From Candidatus Bathyarchaeia archaeon (GTDB lineage: Archaea > Thermoproteota > Bathyarchaeia > Bathyarchaeales > Bathycorpusculaceae), in assembly GCA_049970895.1 (NCBI GenBank), contig JBMFMB010000008.1, forward strand, positions 1-59,989: a stretch of DNA of 59,989 bases. Direction: 5' to 3'. Both the position numbers and the translations under genes were made by a program. Below the pieces are notes generated by a model that was given only the letters and a program-made list of their open reading frames with translations, was not told the origin of the DNA and ran no database searches. Below, piece after piece: positions 28,325 to 38,149 of the stretch (position 1 is its first letter; each line of letters opens with the position of its first letter).

Positions 28325-29017
28325 TTATTTTAGGATTAGCGGATAAACCTCTTTAGTCACGTATTCTAGGTATTTCTCTTTGTCTGTCAAGTTAAATATT
28401 GTTACTGAGGCGTCTCTGGTTATGCCAACAACGTAGCCGTACTCCCTTGACCTTGCCACTATGTACCATAGGTCTCCGTGCTTACAGTAATCCTCAAAAA
28501 GCGAAGTGTTCACCAAGTCTGGTCCATAAAGGGAAAGCTTATTCACATTTGGAATATCAACATTATCGAAAAACGTGATTTTTGTGTCCTCTGGGTTTTT
28601 CAGGTGGAACTCGCGGAGGGTTTCAGGCGGTATACGGGCTTCCACTACTCCGCCAACACGGTCGAAGAGAATTTCGCTGAGCTTGTTGGCTATGAAGTTG
28701 GCTAGGCGCTTCTTCTCAACAACCGTCAAAAACGTGACATCTTCCATTTTGGAAAAGCTGAAGAGGGCTTCAACCGTGTGAGGTAGGGGCGCAACCTTCC
28801 CCCTGTGGAAGACGTGGATTATGTAGTCGTGGGAATATACACCCCTAAGCATGTTCTCTTCTGGTTTTGGCAAAAGGCCCACAACCTCGGTTACAAGCGT
28901 AAACTTGTAGTCGCCCTCTTCGTAGGATTCTTCAACACGGTAGCCACTAAGCCTTGAAGCAACCTCATCCAGTGGAAGCGGTTCTGAAAGCCTAAAAACC
29001 TTGCCAGCGACAACCAT
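28325..29017 (-). CDS. Hypothetical protein (alpha/beta)
   Basis: 230-aa ORF, normal composition, co-oriented with the SPFH operon. Confidence 0.75.
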   Translation of the reverse strand: MVVAGKVFRLSEPLPLDEVASRLSGYRVEESYEEGDYKFTLVTEVVGLLPKPEENMLRGVYSHDYIIHVFHRGKVAPLPHTVEALFSFSKMEDVTFLTVVEKKRLANFIANKLSEILFDRVGGVVEARIPPETLREFHLKNPEDTKITFFDNVDIPNVNKLSLYGPDLVNTSLFEDYCKHGDLWYIVARSREYGYVVGITRDASVTIFNLTDKEKYLEYVTKEVYPLILK

Positions 29018-29114: not shown

Positions 29115-29669
29115 ATGAGCTACATACCAGAACAGGTTAAGCTTTGCTTAAGGGATTTAGTTGAAAGGTTTAAAAGAAATAGGATAAAGTATGTGGTCGT
29201 CGGTGCTTTGCCAGTACATTTTTATGGTAGACCAAGAACCTCGGCGGACATAGACATTGTTCCCATTTCACACATTTCTAGGGAGAAGCTAAAGGCAATT
29301 TTGGCGGATAGGTACACCTTGTATTACAATGGAAAGATTGTGATGAGGTTTATTGACAGCGTAACAAGAGTGGGAGTGGATATCCTTCTCTCGCTAAGCA
29401 CTGCTGGCCTTAGCCGAAAATCATTGAAAAGGCTTAGAAGGGTTGACATTGATGGTGCGCAGATAAACATTCCATGCCCAGAAGACTACATAATAACCAA
29501 GCTGAAAGCGAGGAGACCAGACACCTTTGACTTCGCTGATGTCATGTCAGTGCTTTTAAACATGCGGGAGCAAATAGATTGGAAATACTTAACGAATAGG
29601 GCTAAAGAGGAAGGCTTGGCACATCTTATAAAGTATTATCGGGATGGATTAAAATGGAAGACAAGTTAA
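29115..29669 (+). CDS. Nucleotidyltransferase, AbiEii/DUF6036-like
   Basis: VVGALPVHFYGRPRTSADIDI, PEDYIITKL, DFADV. Confidence 0.8.
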   Translation: MSYIPEQVKLCLRDLVERFKRNRIKYVVVGALPVHFYGRPRTSADIDIVPISHISREKLKAILADRYTLYYNGKIVMRFIDSVTRVGVDILLSLSTAGLSRKSLKRLRRVDIDGAQINIPCPEDYIITKLKARRPDTFDFADVMSVLLNMREQIDWKYLTNRAKEEGLAHLIKYYRDGLKWKTS

Positions 29670-29899
29670 AAGCGCCGATTTATAGGGATGGTACGCTTTT
29701 CTGCCCATATTGCCGCTCACCGCTTTTAACGGTTGAGGAAACCCACTTTAGGTTTAAATGTGCAGTTTGCCAAAAACCCCTCGGAAAACTTTCTGTGGCA
29801 ACTTTGAAGAAGATGTTTGATGATTTCCCAAAGGAGCTAGCCAAAGAATGGATGCTTGAAATGGAGGTAAGGAAAAAGCTCAGCCAAAACAAACTCTAA
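29654..29899 (+). CDS. Small zinc-finger protein
   Basis: CPYC...CAVC; overlaps the NTase. Confidence 0.7.
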   Translation: MEDKLKAPIYRDGTLFCPYCRSPLLTVEETHFRFKCAVCQKPLGKLSVATLKKMFDDFPKELAKEWMLEMEVRKKLSQNKL

Positions 29900-30021
29900 A
29901 TCCCTTCAAGAATTTGTCAAAATAGTGGTTTTCTTTAGCTGCTGGTTGCCTAATTGTTTTAATAATAGTTTTTATCCTCATTTTATACTGCAGTAAGAAT
30001 CGTTAGAGGCAAAGAAGTCAA

Positions 30022-31941
30022 ATGCTCATCAGCGAGGTGATCCTTGAAAATTTCATGAGTTATGAGTATGCTAGGGTACCCCTTAAGCCAGGTGTGAACG
30101 TTGTTTGTGGTCCTAATGGTGCTGGGAAGTCCTCGCTTTTGTTGGCTATTTCTGTAGCCCTTGGACAGTCTTATACTGAGCGTTCTAGGAAGCTCAGCGA
30201 CTTGATCCGTTGGGGTAAGGATCAAGCCCGTGTGACGCTTATACTGGATAATTCTAAGCGGGGAGGCAAACGTCCAGTTCCAAAGTTTAATAAGGACCAG
30301 ATTTTTTTGACCCGGGTTTTGAGGCGGGATGGCAAGTACTGGTTTGAGCTTGAAAACCGCGCCGCTTCAAAGCAGGATGTTGAGAGGCTTTTAGCCAGGC
30401 TGGGCGTTGACCCGGATAACATGCTTATTATTATGCATCAAAACATGGTGGAACAGTTTACAGTTCTTTCTCCGCAAGAAAAACTGAAAATGGTTGAGGC
30501 GGCTGTTGGGCTTGAGGCTTATCGCGAAAACGTTTTGGAAGCTCAGAAAAAGCTTACGCGCATACTAAGCCAAGAAGAGTCCATAGGCAAGCTTTTGGAG
30601 TCGGCGGAGCAGACGCTTAACTATTGGAGGGAGCAATACGAAAGACTTCAAGAGAAGAAGCAGTTGATGGCGAAGAGACGCTTCTTGGAACGGGAGCTTG
30701 CATGGGCTGAGGTAAACCGAAGAGAAGACGCGGTCAAGGATTTAGAGGCAAAACGTGAGAAAGAACTCGCCTTGTTAAGGAAGATTGAAGAGGAAGCCAA
30801 AACAGCTCAAGGACAGCTTCAAACCAAGCAGAGCCAACTTGAAAGGCTGAAAAGCGAATGGAAAAGAAGCCTTAACGAAACCATAAGCCTTGAAAGGGAG
30901 AAGGCTGGAAGCCAAGCCACAATTTCGCTCTGCGAACAGATCCTAGCAGAGGCAGCCTTCATAGAAAACCAAGCCCAAAGCGGTAGGCACTTGAAGCTTT
31001 TGAAAACTGATAGCCTAAAAGAGCTTATAGAAAGCTCAAGGTTGAAGGTTTTAAAGCTTGATGAAGAGCTGAGCAGAAAACTGTCGGAGACGGTGATTCT
31101 TGAGGAGCAGATGGAGAAGGTTGGAAGCCAAATCCTCGACACGAGGGTTAGACTTGCACTTTTGAATTATAGGATGGAGAATGCTAAGGCGAACATTGAG
31201 GATCTGGAAAAGGCGCTTAAAGATGCAAAATCCCAGTTGAATGCTGCTATTAAACGGGCTGAGGAAACTGGACCAAGAATTGCCGTCGTTAAAAGTGCTG
31301 GCGAGATTTTGGATGAAATTCGCGTTGCCGATGGGCATTTGGCGGCTTTGGCTGGCGTTTCAGAAGACGTGGAGCGCATGTACGAGTCTTATTCGCAGCT
31401 TTATTTGGAGCTTAAGGAGAAAGCCCGACTGGTGGCTGAAAACCGCGAAAAAGCCTTAGAAGAGGTTAGGGCTCGGATGCAGGCTTGGCGAACAGTTATT
31501 CAAAGCCTCCTAGAACGTGTAAACCTTGAGTATAAGAAGATTTTGGCTGGTTCTCAAGCTGTTGGCGAGGTTAAGCTCGTGAACGAGCATGACATTGAGG
31601 CGGCTGGACTTGAAATTCTGGTGGGCTTTAAGGGTGGGAAACCAGTGCCGCTTAACGCCTATACGCAGAGCGGGGGCGAAAGGACAACAGCCACCATGAG
31701 CTTCCTATTGGCTTTGCAACAGCATGTGCGTTCACCCTTCCGCGCAGTGGACGAATACGATGTGCACATGGACCCTAAAAACCGTGAGTTAATAGCTCAG
31801 ATGCTTATTTCAACGGTTAAGGATGCGAATGCTCAGTACATTGTGATTACTCCGAGCCAGGTAACCTTCGCTAAGGATAATGTCAACATTATTACTGTTC
31901 AGAATGTTGAGGGCAAATCCATCATTAAAGAGGTTGCATGA
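30022..31941 (+). CDS. Short SMC-family ATPase, Smc5/6-like heads
   Basis: ENFMSY, Walker A GPNGAGKS, Q-loop IMHQ, long coiled coil, signature QSGGER, Walker B SPFRAVDEYDVHMD, IVITP. Confidence 0.9.
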   Translation: MLISEVILENFMSYEYARVPLKPGVNVVCGPNGAGKSSLLLAISVALGQSYTERSRKLSDLIRWGKDQARVTLILDNSKRGGKRPVPKFNKDQIFLTRVLRRDGKYWFELENRAASKQDVERLLARLGVDPDNMLIIMHQNMVEQFTVLSPQEKLKMVEAAVGLEAYRENVLEAQKKLTRILSQEESIGKLLESAEQTLNYWREQYERLQEKKQLMAKRRFLERELAWAEVNRREDAVKDLEAKREKELALLRKIEEEAKTAQGQLQTKQSQLERLKSEWKRSLNETISLEREKAGSQATISLCEQILAEAAFIENQAQSGRHLKLLKTDSLKELIESSRLKVLKLDEELSRKLSETVILEEQMEKVGSQILDTRVRLALLNYRMENAKANIEDLEKALKDAKSQLNAAIKRAEETGPRIAVVKSAGEILDEIRVADGHLAALAGVSEDVERMYESYSQLYLELKEKARLVAENREKALEEVRARMQAWRTVIQSLLERVNLEYKKILAGSQAVGEVKLVNEHDIEAAGLEILVGFKGGKPVPLNAYTQSGGERTTATMSFLLALQQHVRSPFRAVDEYDVHMDPKNRELIAQMLISTVKDANAQYIVITPSQVTFAKDNVNIITVQNVEGKSIIKEVA

Positions 31942-32765
31942 TGCAATCTAAGCGAGAACGCATTAGAATTGGGCGGGAGAGGCTTCAGCGTGTTATTGAG
32001 ATGTGTAGGGCTGTTGAGGAGCGCTCTCTAGACCCCTTTCTGGTGGATGTGGATGAGATAATTAGGGTTGTTAGGGAGTTTTTCCCAGAATGGGAGCAGC
32101 CAGAAGACCTATGCCTAGACGCTGAAGCCATAAACCGCCTCGCATCCGTTATTAGGCTTCAAAGCGAGTGGGTTAAGCACCGCTCAACATCCCTTTACAC
32201 AGACCCTTTCCTCTTAGAGGAGAAGATAAAACACTTAGAGAAAGAAGCCATAGTGGAGGCTTTTCTCGGCGCTTGGCACCCAATAGTTGAGTTTGAACAG
32301 ATTTCGCTCCACAGCCTAAAGGAGGCACTGCGCTACTGGGAAAGCCTACCGCCACTGAAAGATAGATGGAAAGAGTTTCCTCCACCCGAGGAGGCTGGTA
32401 GAGCAGCTACCCGAGAGGAGCTTATAAGGCTTAAAATTTTGCGGGATAAAGCCTTCACAGAAGAGTTGGAAAACTTCTGGAATGAACTGAAAAGGCTTGT
32501 TGAGGAGAAGGGCGAAAATGGCAGAATAGGATACTGGGATTTTGTTGGCGCAGAAACCTATGAGGAAACAATCCACAGAGCATTTATGACGAGTTTTCTC
32601 GTAACTTATGGCTATGCAACCCTTGAAATCAACCCGTTGGAAGAGGAGATTTTCATCAGACCCTTTGAAAAGCAGCAGAGGCGCATAGCCAAAAAACAGC
32701 TGGTCACAATACCTATAGCCATAACCCGTGAAGAGTGGGAAAAATGGCGAAGAAAGGAGGCGTAA
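31938..32765 (+). CDS. Kleisin (ScpA/Nse4-like)
   Basis: N-terminal LDPFLVDVDEII...DAEAINRLASVIRLQSEW resembles the ScpA N domain; C-terminal winged helix IHRAFMTSFLVTYGYATLEINPLEEEIFI; ATGA overlap with SMC. Confidence 0.78.
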   Translation: MMQSKRERIRIGRERLQRVIEMCRAVEERSLDPFLVDVDEIIRVVREFFPEWEQPEDLCLDAEAINRLASVIRLQSEWVKHRSTSLYTDPFLLEEKIKHLEKEAIVEAFLGAWHPIVEFEQISLHSLKEALRYWESLPPLKDRWKEFPPPEEAGRAATREELIRLKILRDKAFTEELENFWNELKRLVEEKGENGRIGYWDFVGAETYEETIHRAFMTSFLVTYGYATLEINPLEEEIFIRPFEKQQRRIAKKQLVTIPIAITREEWEKWRRKEA

Positions 32766-32767
32766 AA

Positions 32768-33325
32768 ATGAGTAAAAGGAAAGCCGTCTACGCAAGCAAG
32801 ATAAAACGCGCCGTTCACATGCTTTTCTACCGCAGACACAAAAAGCCCGGAGTAAAGGGTTGGGAGCTCAGAAAGACTTTGGGCTCCGACTACCCAAAAG
32901 TTTTAAGCATTTTGGATGAGTACTTGAAGCCTTTGGACTTGCAGGTTAAAATGGTTTTTGAAGAGGAAAAGCCAGCCTCCGAAAATCCGACGCTGGAGGA
33001 GTTAGACAGGGCAAGGTTCTACATAACCCTCCGTGGTGATTTAACGCCTAAAGAGGCTAAGATGGTTGGTTGGCGAATAGACGACTTGGCTGGACTAGCC
33101 ATAACAATAGCCTACATAATCTCAAAGAAGGGAAAAGCACCACGAAAAGAAGTGGAAGAACTATTACGCGAGAAGCTGCCATGTTGGAAGGTGGGCTTAA
33201 ACATAGACCACTACATACGCTATGGATACCTAACTCAAGACGAAAACGAACAGTTGTATCTGGACTGGCGAACAAGAGCAGAAGTAGACCAAAAAGCACT
33301 CATAGATCTAATCCTATCAAAGTAA
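32768..33325 (+). CDS. KITE-family tandem winged-helix protein (ScpB/Nse1/Nse3-like)
   Basis: Two predicted WH domains, terminal YLDWRTRAEVD; AGGAGG RBS; third gene of the SMC operon. Confidence 0.68.
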   Translation: MSKRKAVYASKIKRAVHMLFYRRHKKPGVKGWELRKTLGSDYPKVLSILDEYLKPLDLQVKMVFEEEKPASENPTLEELDRARFYITLRGDLTPKEAKMVGWRIDDLAGLAITIAYIISKKGKAPRKEVEELLREKLPCWKVGLNIDHYIRYGYLTQDENEQLYLDWRTRAEVDQKALIDLILSK

Positions 33326-33334
33326 CAAAGGAGC

Positions 33335-33517
33335 TTATTTTCTGATTTTTCTGTAGAGGAAGGCTATGATGTCGATTATGATTATTGCTGTGAGAATTAG
33401 GAGTGGATTGCCCAAAAACTTGCTTGGAAGGGACTCTTCGGCTGCATAAGCATGGTTAATTAAAGTGGAAACTAAAAGAAGTGCACAGAGAATTATTGCA
33501 GCTAGATTTTTCCTCAT
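33335..33517 (-). CDS. Small membrane protein
   Basis: Signal-like N-terminus, second TM with basic tail. Confidence 0.55.
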   Translation of the reverse strand: MRKNLAAIILCALLLVSTLINHAYAAEESLPSKFLGNPLLILTAIIIIDIIAFLYRKIRK

Positions 33518-33993: not shown

Positions 33994-34331
33994 TCGCTTC
34001 CTCCTTCGGACTCCTCCTCGGCTTCTTCAGTGGACTCTGCTAATCTAAGAATTTCTGAATCACCGGGCTCTCTTATAGTTAACGCTGAAACAAGGAAAGG
34101 TTTTCCACAGACAGCAGCCAAATCCATTGAAGAACCACGATAAACGATTAATGGAATGTTGGAAAGCTTACAGTAGTATTCCAAGTCGCTGCGGATTTCA
34201 GCTGGACAGTTAGAAGCAACAATAATCATTTTTGCCTTACCAGTTTTGGCGCTCTGTATCGCCGAATTCGAGCCAAAAGAAACCTTACCAGTTTTAACAG
34301 CCGTTGAAATGGCCTTGTCTATGTCTATCAT
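33990..34331 (-). CDS. rpl30e: 50S ribosomal protein L30e
   Basis: AVKTGKVSFGS, IVASNCP, CGKPFLVS, PGDSEI. Confidence 0.96.
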   Translation of the reverse strand: MIDIDKAISTAVKTGKVSFGSNSAIQSAKTGKAKMIIVASNCPAEIRSDLEYYCKLSNIPLIVYRGSSMDLAAVCGKPFLVSALTIREPGDSEILRLAESTEEAEEESEGGSE

Positions 34332-37300
34332 TTGTTCTCCCTCTTAAGCTCAGACGTGGACATAAACAGTTCCACAAGCCCTGTGCCGACGGGTATGGAC
34401 TGCCCAACAATAACGTTTTCAGTCACGCCTTCCAATGGGTCGCTTTCTCCTCTTATGGCGGCTTCAACGATGTTTGGAACTGTTATTTCGAAGGCTGCCC
34501 TAGCCAAGACACTTGCCTTTTTGCCGCTCACGCCGTGTCTGCCGATTTGTTGCACCTCGCCCGTGGCGGTCATCATGTCCGCCACAAGCATCACGTGGCG
34601 AACGTCAACATCTAAGCCTTGCTCCTCTAAAACGCTCTTAGCCTCCTGGATTAGGACGTTTCTGGCAGCCTCTATTCCCAATGTTTTGGCTATTTCATGA
34701 ACGTTGTTTGTAGTCGTCCTAGTAGTGTCAACGCCATAAACCTCCAGAACTTTGGGGAGGTTTGAGCCGTCTGTGCGTATAACCCACTCGCCATGCTCTT
34801 CAGTGACCAGAACACGCTTTATGCCAGGCACACCCTTAATGTAGAAGGATGAAACCTTGTCAAGGAGCTTTTTCAGGGCTTCGGGTTTTTTGGGCTTGAC
34901 GTGGATGCGGTTTCCAGTTATCTTCACTGTGCAGTTGGCAATTTTCACTTTCTCCTTAAGCTCCTGTATTGTTACGCCCCTGTCTTCCATCATAGCCTTA
35001 TTCAATTCAACAATGATTTCCCCGCGAACTGGGTCTTGGTATACAGCTTGGGCAATGTTTTCAATGGTCGTGTAAAGTATATTTCTGGCTATTTTTACGG
35101 CGGCTTCCCTACTCTTGCGGTGCTTCTCATCCAAGTAAATGACCATTATGGGTGTTGATGGAACCCTCCTAGCGTCAACAATTTCAATAAGCCTCGGCAA
35201 GCCCAAGGTTACGTTCTGCTCTCTAACACCAGCATAATGGAATGTCCTAAGGGTCATCTGTGTGCCTGGCTCTCCAATGGATTGGGCTGAAACTATGCCC
35301 ACGGCTTCACCGGGCTCCATCAAGGCGCGTTTGTAGTGCTCAACTGTTAGCTCTATGGCTTTGTCGACGCCCTCCTTGCTGAGTTTAGCCTCTGTTAGGC
35401 TCTGCTTAAGCTCGCTTATCAGCAATGGCGTGAGTTGGTCTTCAACTTCCTTAAGCTTCTCCTTAATGTATTCTGGAGGTGCTGGCTTACCCTTTTCCAT
35501 TCCAATTCTTATCTGTTCAACAAGGCGGCTCACGTTTACAGCCTTTCCATGGTCGCTTTTAGCTGGGTCAACACCATCCTCGCCATACTTAAACTGGATT
35601 ATGTCGCCTGTTGAGCTTCTAACAGTTCCATCGTATTCTAGGCGCAAGTGTTCCAAAGCGTTGATTAGGCGTCTCTGCATGTAGCCGCTCTGCTGCGTCC
35701 TAACAGCGGTGTCCACAAGCCCTTCGCGTCCGCCCATGGCGTGGAAGAAGAATTCTATGGCGTCTAAGCCCTTCTGGTATGAAGAGTAAACGAAGCCTCG
35801 CGCTTTTGGAGATGGGTCGCCGAACTTGAAGTGGGGCAGCGTCCTTCCCAAATAGCCACGCATTATACGTTTTCCACGCACAGCCTGCTGTCCAACACAG
35901 GCGCTCATCTGCCCGATGTTTAGGCTTGAACCCCTAGCGCCTGTTCTCGTCATCACTATGCCAGAATTCTCCAAAGTGAAGTCTTCATCAGCGATTTTTC
36001 CTGCTTCGTCTCTGGCTTTAGCTAACTCGTTCATTACGTAAATTTCAAAGGAGTCTTCGAGGGTTTGTCCCGGAAGCCTTGGCAGTGTGCCGTCTCGGTA
36101 ACTCTTTATAAGCTCTTCAATGCGTTTTTCAACCCTCTCCATAATCTTCCTTATTTTCGCCTCAGCCTGATGAGAAAGAACAAGCTCATCATAGGAGTAG
36201 GAGAAGCCCCTCATTGTTATGAAAAGCTTCAGCAATCTCGTAATATTGTTTATGAACTCTCGTCCAGCAGCCGTTCCATAATCCTTAATTATTCTGTGGA
36301 GGAGGCTTTCAGATTGCTCTGCACCTATGGCTTTTCTGTCAATTACGCCGCATATTAGCTGCCCGTTCTTAACGACGACGTAGGCGTCGTAGGGGCATTC
36401 CTCCTTAAGGCATTTGGCACATCCGCGACAAGTATTTGCCTTCAAAACATAGTTTAAATCCTTCGGCAGGAATAGGCTGAAAATTTGTTTGCCACTCCAC
36501 ATGGGCTGGGGCTCTTTTATTTGCGGTTCTGGAAGTGGACCCTCATAGCCAGCGGCGATTAATAGTCTGCTAACCTCATCCTTTGTTAAGTAGTTTGACT
36601 TCCTCGTGAAGAGGTATGCAGCCGTTATAAAGTCCCGGATAGCCCCAATTATTGGACCGCCAAATCTCGGCGAGAGGATTTGGTCTTGCACTTGCATGAG
36701 GAGGCGAGCCTCTGTTTGAGCTTCCTCACTTTGCGGTATGTGAAGGTTCATCTCGTCCCCGTCGAAGTCTGCGTTGTAGGGCGGACAAACACATAGGTGA
36801 AGACGGAAGGTCTTGTATGGCAAGACTCTCACATAATGCGCCATAATGGACATTCTGTGGAGGGACGGTTGACGGTTGAAAATGGCTATGTCACCGTTTT
36901 TTAAGTGACGCTCAACAATGTAGCCCGGCTCTAGGGATTCGGCAATCTTCTCCCTATCAGCTACAAACTCAAGCCTAATTCTCTTGCCATCTGGACGGAT
37001 AATGTAGAGGGCTCCAGGATATTTGAAGGGACCATTAATGACAAGTTTTCGCATCTCCTCAATGTTCCATGTGGTCACCTTTTCTGGAACTGAGAGCCTC
37101 ATGGCAACCTCTAATGGTACGCCAACTTCGTTTATGTCTAGGTTTGGGTCTGGAGAAATCACCGTCCGCGCCGAGAAGTCTACACGCTTCCCGGAGAGGT
37201 TGCTTCTGAATCTTCCCTCTTTGCCTTTAAGCCTCTGGGAAAGCGTTTTAAGGGCTCTTCCAGAACGGTGCCTTGCCGGCGGAATGCCAGAAGCCTCATT

Positions 37301-38149
37301 GTTAAAGTATGTTGTTACATGGTACTGGAGGAGTTCCGACAAGTCTTGAATTATGAGGGTGGGTGCGCCAGCCTCCATGTTCTCCTTTAGGCGCTGGTTT
37401 ATGCGGATTATGTCCACAAGTTTGTGGGTTAAGTCATCCTCTGAGCGTATTCCGGACTCCAAAGTTATTGATGGACGCACATATACTGGTGGAACGGGTA
37501 AAACTTGGAGAACCATCCATTCTGGACGGGCTGTTTTCGGGTCGAAGCCCAGAAGCTCCAAATCGTCATTTGGTATGCGTTCAAGCCTCTCCCTAACCAT
37601 GCTTGGCGTTAATGGCTGGGAACCACCCGGAATTTCCTCGCTAAATTTTGTGGGTTTTTCGAAGGTTATCTTATACTGGGGCGCGTTGCAATGGGGGCAA
37701 GTCTTAGCCCTTATCTCTTGGGTGATTCGCTTAAAAACCTCTTCTGGAACTGTTCCCAAGAGTTGGCGGGTTCTCTCAATTCTAGCCCTCAACTTCTTGA
37801 TGGCGTCCTCTGGAAGTAGAATTCGCCCACAGTTTCGGCATGTAACCCTAAGGAGGTCATAAATTATTTTTGCAAATTCTATGTGGATTACTGGGACTGC
37901 TAATTCTATGTGCCCAAAATGCCCCGGACAGCGTATAGCGGTGTTGCCACATGTCTTGCATCTCTGCCTTGGCTCCAGGGTTCCAAGCCTTCCGTCCATA
38001 AGCCCAGCGGTTATTGGGGCGCCATCCTCATCATAGGTGTCAGGCGTTTGAATTTCAACAACCGATAGTTTGCGTATTTCCTGGGGGGATAGTAAGCCGA
38101 AACGGATTTCATCAACAACTTTATGGGCGACTTCCTCAACTGCCGCCAT
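34328..38149 (-). CDS. rpoA: DNA-directed RNA polymerase largest subunit, fused A'/A'' (Rpo1)
   Basis: NADFDGD catalytic motif, CPGHFGH, plus A'' motifs AQSIGEPGTQMTL and LARAAFE in one 1273-aa ORF. Confidence 0.98.
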   Translation of the reverse strand: MAAVEEVAHKVVDEIRFGLLSPQEIRKLSVVEIQTPDTYDEDGAPITAGLMDGRLGTLEPRQRCKTCGNTAIRCPGHFGHIELAVPVIHIEFAKIIYDLLRVTCRNCGRILLPEDAIKKLRARIERTRQLLGTVPEEVFKRITQEIRAKTCPHCNAPQYKITFEKPTKFSEEIPGGSQPLTPSMVRERLERIPNDDLELLGFDPKTARPEWMVLQVLPVPPVYVRPSITLESGIRSEDDLTHKLVDIIRINQRLKENMEAGAPTLIIQDLSELLQYHVTTYFNNEASGIPPARHRSGRALKTLSQRLKGKEGRFRSNLSGKRVDFSARTVISPDPNLDINEVGVPLEVAMRLSVPEKVTTWNIEEMRKLVINGPFKYPGALYIIRPDGKRIRLEFVADREKIAESLEPGYIVERHLKNGDIAIFNRQPSLHRMSIMAHYVRVLPYKTFRLHLCVCPPYNADFDGDEMNLHIPQSEEAQTEARLLMQVQDQILSPRFGGPIIGAIRDFITAAYLFTRKSNYLTKDEVSRLLIAAGYEGPLPEPQIKEPQPMWSGKQIFSLFLPKDLNYVLKANTCRGCAKCLKEECPYDAYVVVKNGQLICGVIDRKAIGAEQSESLLHRIIKDYGTAAGREFINNITRLLKLFITMRGFSYSYDELVLSHQAEAKIRKIMERVEKRIEELIKSYRDGTLPRLPGQTLEDSFEIYVMNELAKARDEAGKIADEDFTLENSGIVMTRTGARGSSLNIGQMSACVGQQAVRGKRIMRGYLGRTLPHFKFGDPSPKARGFVYSSYQKGLDAIEFFFHAMGGREGLVDTAVRTQQSGYMQRRLINALEHLRLEYDGTVRSSTGDIIQFKYGEDGVDPAKSDHGKAVNVSRLVEQIRIGMEKGKPAPPEYIKEKLKEVEDQLTPLLISELKQSLTEAKLSKEGVDKAIELTVEHYKRALMEPGEAVGIVSAQSIGEPGTQMTLRTFHYAGVREQNVTLGLPRLIEIVDARRVPSTPIMVIYLDEKHRKSREAAVKIARNILYTTIENIAQAVYQDPVRGEIIVELNKAMMEDRGVTIQELKEKVKIANCTVKITGNRIHVKPKKPEALKKLLDKVSSFYIKGVPGIKRVLVTEEHGEWVIRTDGSNLPKVLEVYGVDTTRTTTNNVHEIAKTLGIEAARNVLIQEAKSVLEEQGLDVDVRHVMLVADMMTATGEVQQIGRHGVSGKKASVLARAAFEITVPNIVEAAIRGESDPLEGVTENVIVGQSIPVGTGLVELFMSTSELKRENK

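Follow-up and report, generated by a model that had tools for sequence, protein, structure and literature searches.

Operons that encode an SMC5/6-related SMC protein together with a kleisin and a kite are described for TACK and Asgard archaea in the main texts of two studies (PMC8665677; bioRxiv 10.1101/2024.01.07.573240). In the first of these, Yoshinaga & Inagaki (2021) name Bathyarchaeota metagenomes (PMC8665677), and according to van Hooff et al. (version 2025-05-28) the kleisins of such operons are related to Nse4 and their kites resemble Nse1/3 (bioRxiv 10.1101/2024.01.07.573240). We analyzed a window of 59 989 nt, meaning the whole stretch of DNA presented here, and found an operon that differs in nothing essential from those described: an SMC protein grouping with Smc5/6, an Nse4-related kleisin and an Nse1/3-like kite are encoded in a single operon, the genome also carries a canonical Smc-ScpAB, and the organism belongs to the TACK lineage. 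The operon is a further member of the published archaeal group and the idea is not new. A first-pass annotation of this DNA had taken the kleisin and KITE partners to be uncharacterised; these had already been identified by van Hooff et al., as the text of the preprint states (bioRxiv 10.1101/2024.01.07.573240). At a probability of roughly 0.88, we read the three genes as encoding an archaeal SMC5/6-related complex, which gives the genome a second SMC machine in addition to its canonical Smc-ScpAB.

The list of open reading frames and their translations places three coupled genes on the + strand at 30022–33325, in agreement with the earlier proposal of SMC, kleisin and KITE in one operon. The operon and its flanking features are the following:

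28325..29017, − strand: conserved 230-aa protein (P0394) of no recognised family, neighbouring the operon
29940..30021, + strand: putative promoter region of the operon, AT-rich, with a TATA-like TTTTATAC ∼33–40 nt before the ATG, as read from the sequence
30022..31941, + strand: SMC5/6-related ATPase, 639 aa, hinge-less in its structure model (Pfam SMC_N 1.1e-37)
31938..32765, + strand: Nse4-like kleisin, 275 aa (Pfam Nse4_C 9.3e-4)
32768..33325 (alternative GTG start at 32735), + strand: KITE protein, 185 aa, two predicted winged helices, Nse1/Nse3(MAGE)-like, without RING (AF2 pLDDT 87.9)
33339..33353, + strand: T-rich tract TTATTTTCTGATTTTTC directly past the KITE stop, as read from the sequence

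The stop codon of the SMC gene overlaps the start codon of the kleisin gene in an ATGA, which bears out the translational coupling noted before. The KITE gene most likely starts at the internal ATG at 32768, which lies 2 nt past the kleisin TAA and is preceded by GGAGG (32754–32759), rather than at the GTG at 32735, which would give 196 aa. The gene boundaries drawn earlier thus stand with the exception of the KITE start. The AT-rich stretch upstream of the SMC gene probably holds the operon promoter, where TTTTATAC is called TATA-like on the basis of the archaeal TATA consensus. Archaeal terminators are oligo-T tracts, and transcription of the operon likely ends at the T-rich tract past the KITE stop. 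Downstream, Pfam and NCBIfam identify NusA, L30e, RpoA and RpoB on the − strand, and the operon is therefore convergent with the RNA polymerase operon among core genes, as had been stated.

The ATPase was characterized via its motifs, its database matches and an AF2 model (pLDDT 89.1), in which an N-terminal head (residues ∼1–162) and a C-terminal head (513–637) are seen. Its catalytic motifs are Walker A GPNGAGKS (30–37), the Q-loop Q140, the signature SGGE (550–553) and Walker B D577-E578; Walker A, Q-loop, signature motif and the Walker B D-E pair are invariant across 35 family sequences. The head motifs from which an Smc5/Smc6-like ATPase had been proposed are all present: ENFMSY at residues 9–14, QSGGERTTATMSFLLALQQHVRSPFRAVDEYDVHMDPKN at residues 549–587 and ITP at the H-loop position (609–611). 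According to phmmer comparisons with yeast and human Smc5 and to a head alignment, the ATPase, Smc5 and Smc6 all carry (I/L)TP at the H-loop position, QSGGE occurs in the ATPase and Smc5, and DE[FY]DV.MD occurs in the ATPase and Smc6, whereas the canonical Smc rows of the alignment carry ITH, ITL or ISH at the H-loop position and DEIDAxLD instead. A sequence search of the PDB gave Smc5 as the best match (8.7e-32), followed by Smc6 (6.4e-27). The fold search mixes subfamilies, in that the ATPase model matches the head of Pyrococcus Smc best and Smc6 next, and the best NCBIfam model is SMC_prok_A (3.4e-53), though far under its cut-off. The latter two results would suit a shortened paralogue of canonical Smc-ScpAB (a ‘mini-condensin’) that acquired Smc5/6-like motifs by convergence. 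However, several independent motifs are common to the ATPase and Smc5/6, and the head phylogeny parts the ATPase from canonical Smc.

In an IQ-TREE phylogeny of 59 rows and 331 head columns, the family of short archaeal ATPases to which this protein belongs forms a clade with Smc5 and Smc6 at a support of 100/99; the wider SMC5/6-related group received 99/92 and canonical Smc 96/78, and Rad50 is a distant outgroup. The taxa of the tree were taken from the best matches to the query ATPase and include a single Smc1-4-type eukaryotic sequence. This careful tree comprises 59 of 91 rows, the 32 omitted ones being redundant family, Smc5 and canonical sequences, and the Smc5 and Smc6 labels were confirmed by PDB search. 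The ATPase thus falls with Smc5/6, as the first-pass annotation had expected of a head-domain tree, rather than with either canonical Smc or Rad50, the two placements that it had named as contrary to its reading. A sister relation of the short family to eukaryotic Smc5/6 is less well supported: the sister node has only 47% SH-aLRT in a quick tree, and the careful tree puts the long archaeal sequences P0330 and P0388 closer to Smc5/6 (90–91/74–76).

On sequence evidence the second gene encodes a kleisin that is closer to Nse4 than to ScpA. The protein comprises an ScpA-like N-domain (residues ∼28–80), a central segment predicted to bind the KITE protein (∼90–140), in which W113 and Y133 are nearly invariant and P115 is invariant, and a C-terminal winged helix (∼172–270). 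Pfam Nse4_C matches 20 of the 38 kleisin family members (best 5.6e-9) and Pfam ScpA and Rad21 match none of them; the four top matches of the kleisin profile in the PDB are EID3/Nse4, and the protein atlas links the kleisin to a eukaryotic Nse4 cluster (0.91). PDB searches with the single sequences of the kleisin and of the KITE protein gave no match. An hhalign comparison with archaeal ScpA (94.3%, E 1e-7, columns 28–240) covers both end domains, so that the N- and C-domains described earlier as ScpA/Nse4-like were found again. This homology is a further argument for the mini-condensin, and the Pfam counts (0/38 for ScpA versus 20/38 for Nse4_C) speak against it.

Judged from the AF2 model of its product, the third gene encodes a KITE protein with tandem winged helices, as had been assigned, and this protein is closest to Nse3/MAGE and Nse1. 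Foldseek ranked 5hvq (MAGE-G1/NSE1), 7dg2 (Nse1-Nse3-Nse4; TMq 0.63–0.67) and MAGE-A4 at the top, followed by JetB (rank 6, E 4.3e-4), ScpB and MukE. Pfam MAGE matches 2 of the 38 KITE family members, Pfam ScpB matches none, and the KITE profile found no match in the PDB. The operon and the canonical Smc-ScpA-ScpB have the SMC/kleisin/KITE design, the operon layout and the kleisin homology at both ends in common. However, the operon ATPase sits in a separate clade, is predicted to be hinge-less and has 639 aa, whereas the canonical Smc of this genome has 1182 aa. The ScpA and ScpB of the genome match their Pfam models, while the operon partners match neither. With the tree separating the family from canonical Smc at 99/92 to 100/99 and the KITE fold matching Nse3 and Nse1 before ScpB, we regard the mini-condensin as highly improbable and return to an SMC5/6-related complex. 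Co-folding of the kleisin with two KITE copies, a part of the multimer that the first-pass annotation had suggested modelling, yielded 0.71 compared with 0.00 for the best of three controls; the mark is attained by 116 of 157 solved complexes versus 2 of 215 mismatched pairs. At least 73% of contacts are common to the runs, with a partner pLDDT of at least 79. Binding of the kleisin to the KITE protein is supported by this model, to which similarity with solved Nse1-Nse3-Nse4 structures may have contributed.

Between its two heads the AF2 model of the ATPase is without a hinge domain: an ascending helix (165–318) and a descending helix (329–510, with breaks at 417–425 and 443–449) are joined by a 10-residue apical loop (319–328). 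Each arm is modelled as a helical hairpin of ∼150 residues, roughly 23 nm and about half the usual length, and the protein has 639 aa versus ∼1000–1130 aa for Smc5/6. The Pfam model SMC_hinge (PF06470) found no match in the ATPase; since this model also misses true Smc5/6 hinges, the absence of the hinge rests on the AF2 model and the protein length. TACK members of the family have ∼580–700 aa and are likewise hinge-less, a form that occurs across the phylum in the sample of 401 genomes. Related archaeal long forms apparently keep a globular mid-domain, as judged by composition and sequence only, and one of the long relatives, P0257, which nests in the short family, has a CDKC motif in the middle of its arm. 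Because the ATPase lacks the hinge while the long archaeal forms and Smc5/6 appear to retain a mid-domain, the hinge-less short form looks derived, which makes the earlier description of an ‘ancestral-type’ complex doubtful. A search of the literature for archaeal SMC5/6-type proteins without a hinge, or for experiments on such a protein, returned only phylogenetic papers and one actinobacterial report, which assigns hinge-less SMCs to marine Actinobacteria, a different group (PMC12153180). In the main texts of PMC8665677 and bioRxiv 10.1101/2024.01.07.573240 the word ‘hinge’ is confined to general descriptions, and neither the ∼580–700 aa size of TACK SMCs nor the conserved 230-aa neighbour is mentioned; the supplements of both may cover these points.

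A short hinge-less coiled coil is also a property of Rad50, ASRPs and RecN. Together with weak NCBIfam matches of the ATPase to Rad50 (2.6e-21) and ASRP (2.2e-19) and the CDKC motif of P0257, it could indicate a Rad50/ASRP (ClsN/Sph)-like repair or compartment ATPase, which would dimerise through linked tips and whose downstream genes would not be ring-closing partners. However, ASRPs are defined by a zinc-hook CxxC and form a separate clade, as reported in the source text (PMC9389158), whereas the ATPase has no CxxC in its arm or elsewhere in its sequence and scores 69.5 bits against the NCBIfam ASRP cut-off of 300. Mre11-Rad50 is encoded elsewhere in the genome, Rad50 stands far outside in the tree, and conservation extends from the ATPase to its kleisin and KITE partners. 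We consider this the least probable of the readings.

We determined the distribution of the SMC family by a genome search, which was used instead of an SMC-alignment locus search dominated by Walker-A pattern matches (2 true family loci, L009 and L010, among 78). The family is present in 214 of the 401 sampled genomes of the phylum (E ≤ 1e-40), including 13 matches at only 1e-41 to 1e-47 that may be cross-hits to canonical Smc. Identity within the family ranges from 37 to 94% in many genomes, and SMC, kleisin and KITE genes follow each other in this order on one strand in 46 of the 52 loci examined; four of the six exceptions lie at a contig end, and in the other two both partners are found elsewhere in the genome. 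The operon is therefore more than a chance arrangement. In many family-level groups nearly all sampled genomes contain the SMC gene in one copy with conserved order, which fits a vertically inherited core gene.

The genome under study (97%-complete) carries one gene of the short SMC family; its canonical Smc-ScpA-ScpB operon lies elsewhere, and a genome search with SMC_N returned only the operon ATPase, canonical Smc, Rad50 and weaker ABC-type matches. Eukaryotic Smc5/6 restricts extrachromosomal viral DNA. An anti-plasmid or anti-virus module of the Wadjet/Lamassu type, in which SMC, kleisin and KITE would detect foreign DNA and bring in a nuclease whose gene lies elsewhere, would be in line with this property. 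Wadjet JetABCD and MukBEF likewise combine an SMC-like ATPase with a kleisin and a KITE, JetB and MukE are among the fold matches of the KITE model, the ATPase has generic matches to mad3 (4.7e-29), LmuB (1.1e-22) and, over part of the protein, JetC (2.6e-9), and a nucleotidyltransferase/zinc-ribbon pair is inserted beside the operon in this genome only. However, JetD_C found no match in the genome whereas the control genome of Corynebacterium glutamicum did match, in line with the absence of a JetD-like nuclease noted before (a search with PF09664 was uninformative, since its control gave no match). Furthermore, the kleisin and KITE proteins have no PADLOC match, the sequences are much nearer to Smc5/6, and the ATPase scores far higher against Smc and Smc5/6 models. 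The single-copy occurrence of the family in whole lineages with conserved order, the position of the operon among core genes (RNA polymerase, NusA, L30e) and a base composition that reveals no island also argue against defence, which we regard as very unlikely. The SMC5/6-related complex would likely serve genome maintenance on the cell's own chromosome, either through DNA repair and replication-linked junction handling or through chromosome organisation, the kind of role that the first-pass annotation had favoured over defence.

In relatives, P0394 is a divergent neighbour of the SMC gene, whereas here the two are parted by the inserted nucleotidyltransferase/zinc-ribbon pair (29115–29899). 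P0394 is adjacent in 22 of the 52 loci, divergent in 21 and at gaps of up to ∼220 bp in 19; it occurs in 193 of the 401 genomes, and the family-level groups that contain it are, with few exceptions, those that contain the SMC gene. Pfam, NCBIfam and PDB searches gave no match, comparison with the kleisin and KITE profiles showed it to be unrelated to either, and the protein atlas places it in unnamed clusters only, with CENP-L (0.83) and RdgC (0.78) as weak leads. P0394 is a possible accessory factor.

By homology with known SMC complexes, two copies of the 639-aa ATPase would engage through their heads upon ATP binding. One kleisin would bridge them, with its N-domain on the neck of one ATPase and its C-terminal winged helix on the second ATPase's cap, and a KITE dimer on kleisin residues ∼90–140 would clamp DNA together with the engaged heads. 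Since there is no hinge, dimerisation would rest on the heads, the kleisin and the KITE pair, or else on an uncharacterised contact of the arm tips, and the complex would enclose a much smaller compartment than condensin does. Eukaryotic Smc5/6 is alike in the three head motifs, in the Nse4-type C-terminal winged helix, in the MAGE/Nse1-type tandem winged helices and in a KITE pair, here predicted, on the middle of the kleisin. In contrast to the Smc5-Smc6 heterodimer, the operon has one SMC gene and one KITE gene, so that an SMC homodimer is expected, and its ATPase is modelled without a hinge and with arms about half as long. Eukaryotic Smc5/6 further contains the Nse1 RING, the Nse2 SUMO ligase and the Nse5/6 loader; the KITE protein here is modelled as two winged helices without a RING. 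A wider proposal seems to us unlikely: SMC5/6-type complexes of TACK archaea would ordinarily work in the hinge-less, half-length form and entrap or clamp DNA without any hinge, and P0394 would be a fourth, accessory subunit throughout the lineage, perhaps a loader or regulator in place of Nse5/6 or Nse2.

The locus adds modestly to what is known, as a clean and complete example from Bathyarchaeia with a natural ‘mini’ SMC that appears hinge-less and a co-occurring P0394 gene. A compact complex of three proteins would lend itself to testing whether SMC proteins depend on long arms and a hinge. The archaeal lineage of complexes to which the operon belongs is thought to be the source of eukaryotic Smc5/6, a view already in print, and the operon is therefore relevant to the origin of eukaryotic chromosome machinery.

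At 30022-33325 of the window, three consecutive open reading frames were found on the forward strand, where the first-pass annotation had claimed an operon. Its genes are:

Genes of the SMC5/6-type operon
30022-31941, forward strand: P0001, SMC5/6-related ATPase, ORF of 639 aa
31938-32765, forward strand: P0002, Nse4-like kleisin, ORF of 275 aa; start (ATG) and P0001 stop (TGA) overlap as ATGA
32735 (GTG) or 32768 (ATG) to 33325, forward strand: KITE protein, ORF taken from the ORF list and direct reading

Since the ATG at 32768 sits 2 nt past the P0002 stop and 9 nt past a GGAGG, a KITE product of 185 aa is more likely than one starting at the GTG. Direct reading showed an AT-rich spacer containing a TATA-like element in front of the first gene and a T-rich tract after the last one. 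NusA, L30e, RpoA (a single ORF) and RpoB are encoded on the reverse strand downstream, so that the operon is indeed convergent with the RNA polymerase genes. RNA polymerase subunit A is encoded by one 1273-aa ORF with Rpb1 domains 1-5 (34328-38149, reverse strand); in most archaea the gene is split into A' and A''. Where the KITE gene and nusA converge, the space between them holds a 60-aa ORF (33335-33517, reverse strand), a candidate gene whose product looks hydrophobic. Near-identical proteins are labelled Bathyarchaeia at source.

P0001 matched Pfam SMC_N at 1.1e-37. Its best sequence matches among solved structures were yeast and human Smc5 (8.7e-32), compared with 6.4e-27 for Smc6 and 4e-26 for Pyrococcus Smc. 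Both the alignments to these structures and a head alignment bore out the Smc5/Smc6-like head motifs that had been claimed:

Head motifs of the P0001 family, Smc5, Smc6 and canonical Smc
N-terminal strand: family ENFMSY; Smc5 NF(V/I)TY; Smc6 (S/N)FMCH; canonical Smc GFKSF/Y
Signature: family QSGGE; Smc5 QSGGE; Smc6 LSGGE; canonical Smc SGGE without preceding Q
D-loop region: family DE[FY]DV.MD; Smc5 DEINQGMD; Smc6 DEFDVFMD; canonical Smc DEIDAxLD
H-loop position: family, Smc5 and Smc6 (I/L)TP; canonical Smc ITH, ITL or ISH

P0001 looks catalytically competent, since Walker A, Q140, SGGE, D577-E578 and H582 do not vary across 35 sequences of the family.

For the phylogeny we combined family members with the next tier of matches from an all-against-library search, canonical SMCs and the Smc and Rad50 of the source genome; family HMMs served to excise the two head parts, N and C, before tree building. 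Two long proteins of the next tier are orthologues of Smc6 (1.9e-118) and Smc5 (4.2e-139), as judged against the human proteins. In the careful tree (LG+C20+F+G4 by PMSF, 59 rows, 331 columns), whose sample is biased towards the best matches to P0001, the short family, two long archaeal sequences, Smc5 and Smc6 form one clade at 100/99, with moderate support only for the branching order inside it. The SMC5/6-related group in the wider sense was recovered at 99/92. A separate clade (96/78) unites the canonical sequences from bacteria and archaea with those of Smc1-4 type, and Rad50 is the outgroup. P0001 thus falls with Smc5/6, and not with canonical Smc or Rad50.

The AlphaFold2 model of P0001 (pLDDT 89.1) runs from the head through a helix (165-318), a low-confidence loop of 10 residues and a returning helix (329-510) to the C-head. 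The returning helix has two short breaks compatible with a joint. The model lacks a globular mid-domain, and the sequence has no CxxC hook. Because most family members in the 50%-identity clusters measure 540-700 aa and the open frames of the family measure about 580-700 aa across the phylum, the short form is the rule among the sampled genomes and not a truncation. In a few relatives the protein is longer. The archaeal proteins P0303 and P0330 (928-982 aa) have a G/P-rich, apparently globular centre; in the careful tree P0330 lies closer to eukaryotic Smc5/6 than the short-form sequences do (90/74), and P0303 carries a GMVYGPL stretch that resembles the start of SMC hinges. In the tree, P0257, P0263 and P0269 (1016-1047 aa) branch from inside the short family. 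The coiled coil of P0257 is far longer and bears a CDKC motif in the middle of the arm, somewhat like a zinc hook of the Rad50 type. The Pfam hinge model is uninformative on the centres of these long relatives, as it also misses true Smc5/6 hinges. We regard loss of the hinge as the likelier direction of change.

On its own, the kleisin P0002 gave a weak match to Nse4_C that fell short of the cut-off (9.3e-4). Within a set of 38 syntenic homologues, Nse4_C was matched by 20 (best 5.6e-9), ScpA and Rad21 by none. When the family profile was compared with the PDB, human EID3 and yeast Nse4 took the top four places (1.5e-4 to 4.8e-4), followed by Pyrococcus ScpA C-domains (0.03-0.05). The protein atlas linked P0002 to a eukaryotic cluster with a score of 0.91, and 76% of the members of that cluster carry Nse4_C. 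When the kleisin profile was set against one built from canonical archaeal ScpA (17 sequences, same phylum), the two aligned across both the N- and the C-terminal domain (94.3% probability, E 1e-7). These comparisons agree with the earlier description of ScpA/Nse4-like end domains, and by them P0002 is a predicted kleisin closer to Nse4 than to ScpA.

The KITE protein itself yielded no Pfam, NCBIfam or PDB sequence match; the MAGE domain was matched by 2 of 38 homologues. Its model (pLDDT 87.9) consists of two winged-helix domains, in line with the fold first proposed, and Foldseek ranked MAGE-G1/NSE1 first, followed by Nse1-Nse3-Nse4 (TMq 0.63-0.67), MAGE-A4 and then JetB, ScpB and MukE. Co-folding of one kleisin with two KITE copies reached 0.71, and the best of three controls scored 0.00. 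Solved complexes attain the mark in 116 of 157 cases, mismatched pairs in 2 of 215. Contact agreement between runs was at least 73% and partner pLDDT at least 79. The predicted KITE interface covers kleisin residues of about 90-140, including the conserved W113, P115 and Y133. The modelling supports binding of the KITE pair by the kleisin; since Nse1-Nse3-Nse4 structures exist, the pass may in part mirror likeness to them.

Could the operon be a defence module? We consider this very improbable. In agreement with the first-pass annotation, no JetD-like nuclease was found: a JetD_C search of the source genome (1.34 Mb, 97% complete) was negative while its control was positive. PADLOC returned no match for kleisin or KITE and only generic ABC/SMC matches for the SMC protein, and no island was seen in the composition profile.

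The source genome also encodes a canonical Smc (1182 aa)-ScpA-ScpB operon and Mre11-Rad50. Across the phylum, the SMC profile matched 214 of 401 sampled genomes (E <= 1e-40), 13 of them only at 1e-41 to 1e-47, which may be cross-hits to canonical Smc. In many family-level groups almost every genome has the family; in several others it was not found (0/16, 0/23, 0/12, 0/15). A synteny check found kleisin and KITE directly downstream of SMC on the same strand in 46 of 52 loci, the window included; in four of the six exceptions the locus is truncated where its contig ends. One family-level group has kleisin and KITE about 5-8 kb from SMC on the opposite strand in two of three genomes, and the third genome has its kleisin on another contig; in another group the kleisin-KITE pair is on a different contig from SMC. 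All three genes are retained in these broken-up operons (G130:C19 and G346:C10/C16). In family-level groups 21 and 22, the SMC5/6-type gene was present in 29/32 and 7/8 genomes. Because the source genome's ScpA, used as single query, found no canonical ScpA there (0/7 and 0/4), the SMC5/6-type complex may be the sole SMC complex of these groups.

A further gene may be associated with the operon. P0394 (28325-29017, reverse strand) is a conserved protein of 230 aa for which Pfam, NCBIfam, the protein atlas and the PDB gave no family assignment; profiles show that it is related to neither KITE nor kleisin. At 22 of the 52 loci a homologue is the direct neighbour of the SMC gene; the two are divergent in 21 of these, and in 19 no more than about 220 bp separates them. 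Counted over related, non-independent genomes, P0394 homologues are present in 193 of 401, and the family-level groups that have them nearly coincide with those that have SMC:

Genomes with SMC and with P0394, by family-level group
Group 19: SMC 16/17, P0394 16/17
Group 21: SMC 29/32, P0394 28/32
Group 23: SMC 17/17, P0394 17/17
Group 28: SMC 24/24, P0394 24/24

Both are absent from the same groups. A strict link is weakened by two genera that have SMC without P0394 (6/10 vs 0/10; 3/3 vs 0/3), by the large distance between the two genes in many genomes and by the kinship of the genomes; the putative association is a lead, nothing more. Between P0394 and the SMC gene, the window contains a pair at 29115-29899 (forward strand), a DUF6036/DUF2204 nucleotidyltransferase (184 aa) overlapping a zinc-ribbon-like ORF of 81 aa. 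It was found at none of the 51 other SMC loci; such a small pair might be mobile or toxin-antitoxin-like.

Yoshinaga and Inagaki (PMC8665677) delimited a set of 80 sequences, 'SMC5/6-related aSMC', that come mainly from TACK, Bathyarchaeota being among the names given; 44 of them occur beside a canonical SMC. Yoshinaga et al. 2022 (PMC9389158) distinguish these from ClsN and Sph, the zinc-hook ASRPs. For TACK and Asgard archaea, van Hooff et al. (bioRxiv, version 2025-05-28) report that these SMCs share operons with kleisins related to Nse4 and with Nse1/3-like kites, and propose whole-complex duplication. Such partners, of whose characterisation the first-pass annotation was not aware, have therefore been described, and its central idea is in print, as PMC8665677 and van Hooff et al. 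describe such operons. The accessible main texts of these papers mention a 'hinge' in general descriptions alone and do not take up protein length. Literature searches found neither an experimental study nor a hinge-less archaeal SMC5/6-type protein; one paper on a 'hinge-less SMC' deals with sequences that are assigned to marine Actinobacteria (PMC12153180).

The three-gene observation is confirmed and its Smc5/6-type interpretation supported. As the kind is already published, the operon of the window is a further member of it. Only the hinge-less short arms and the co-occurring P0394 gene, known here computationally, seem under-described.
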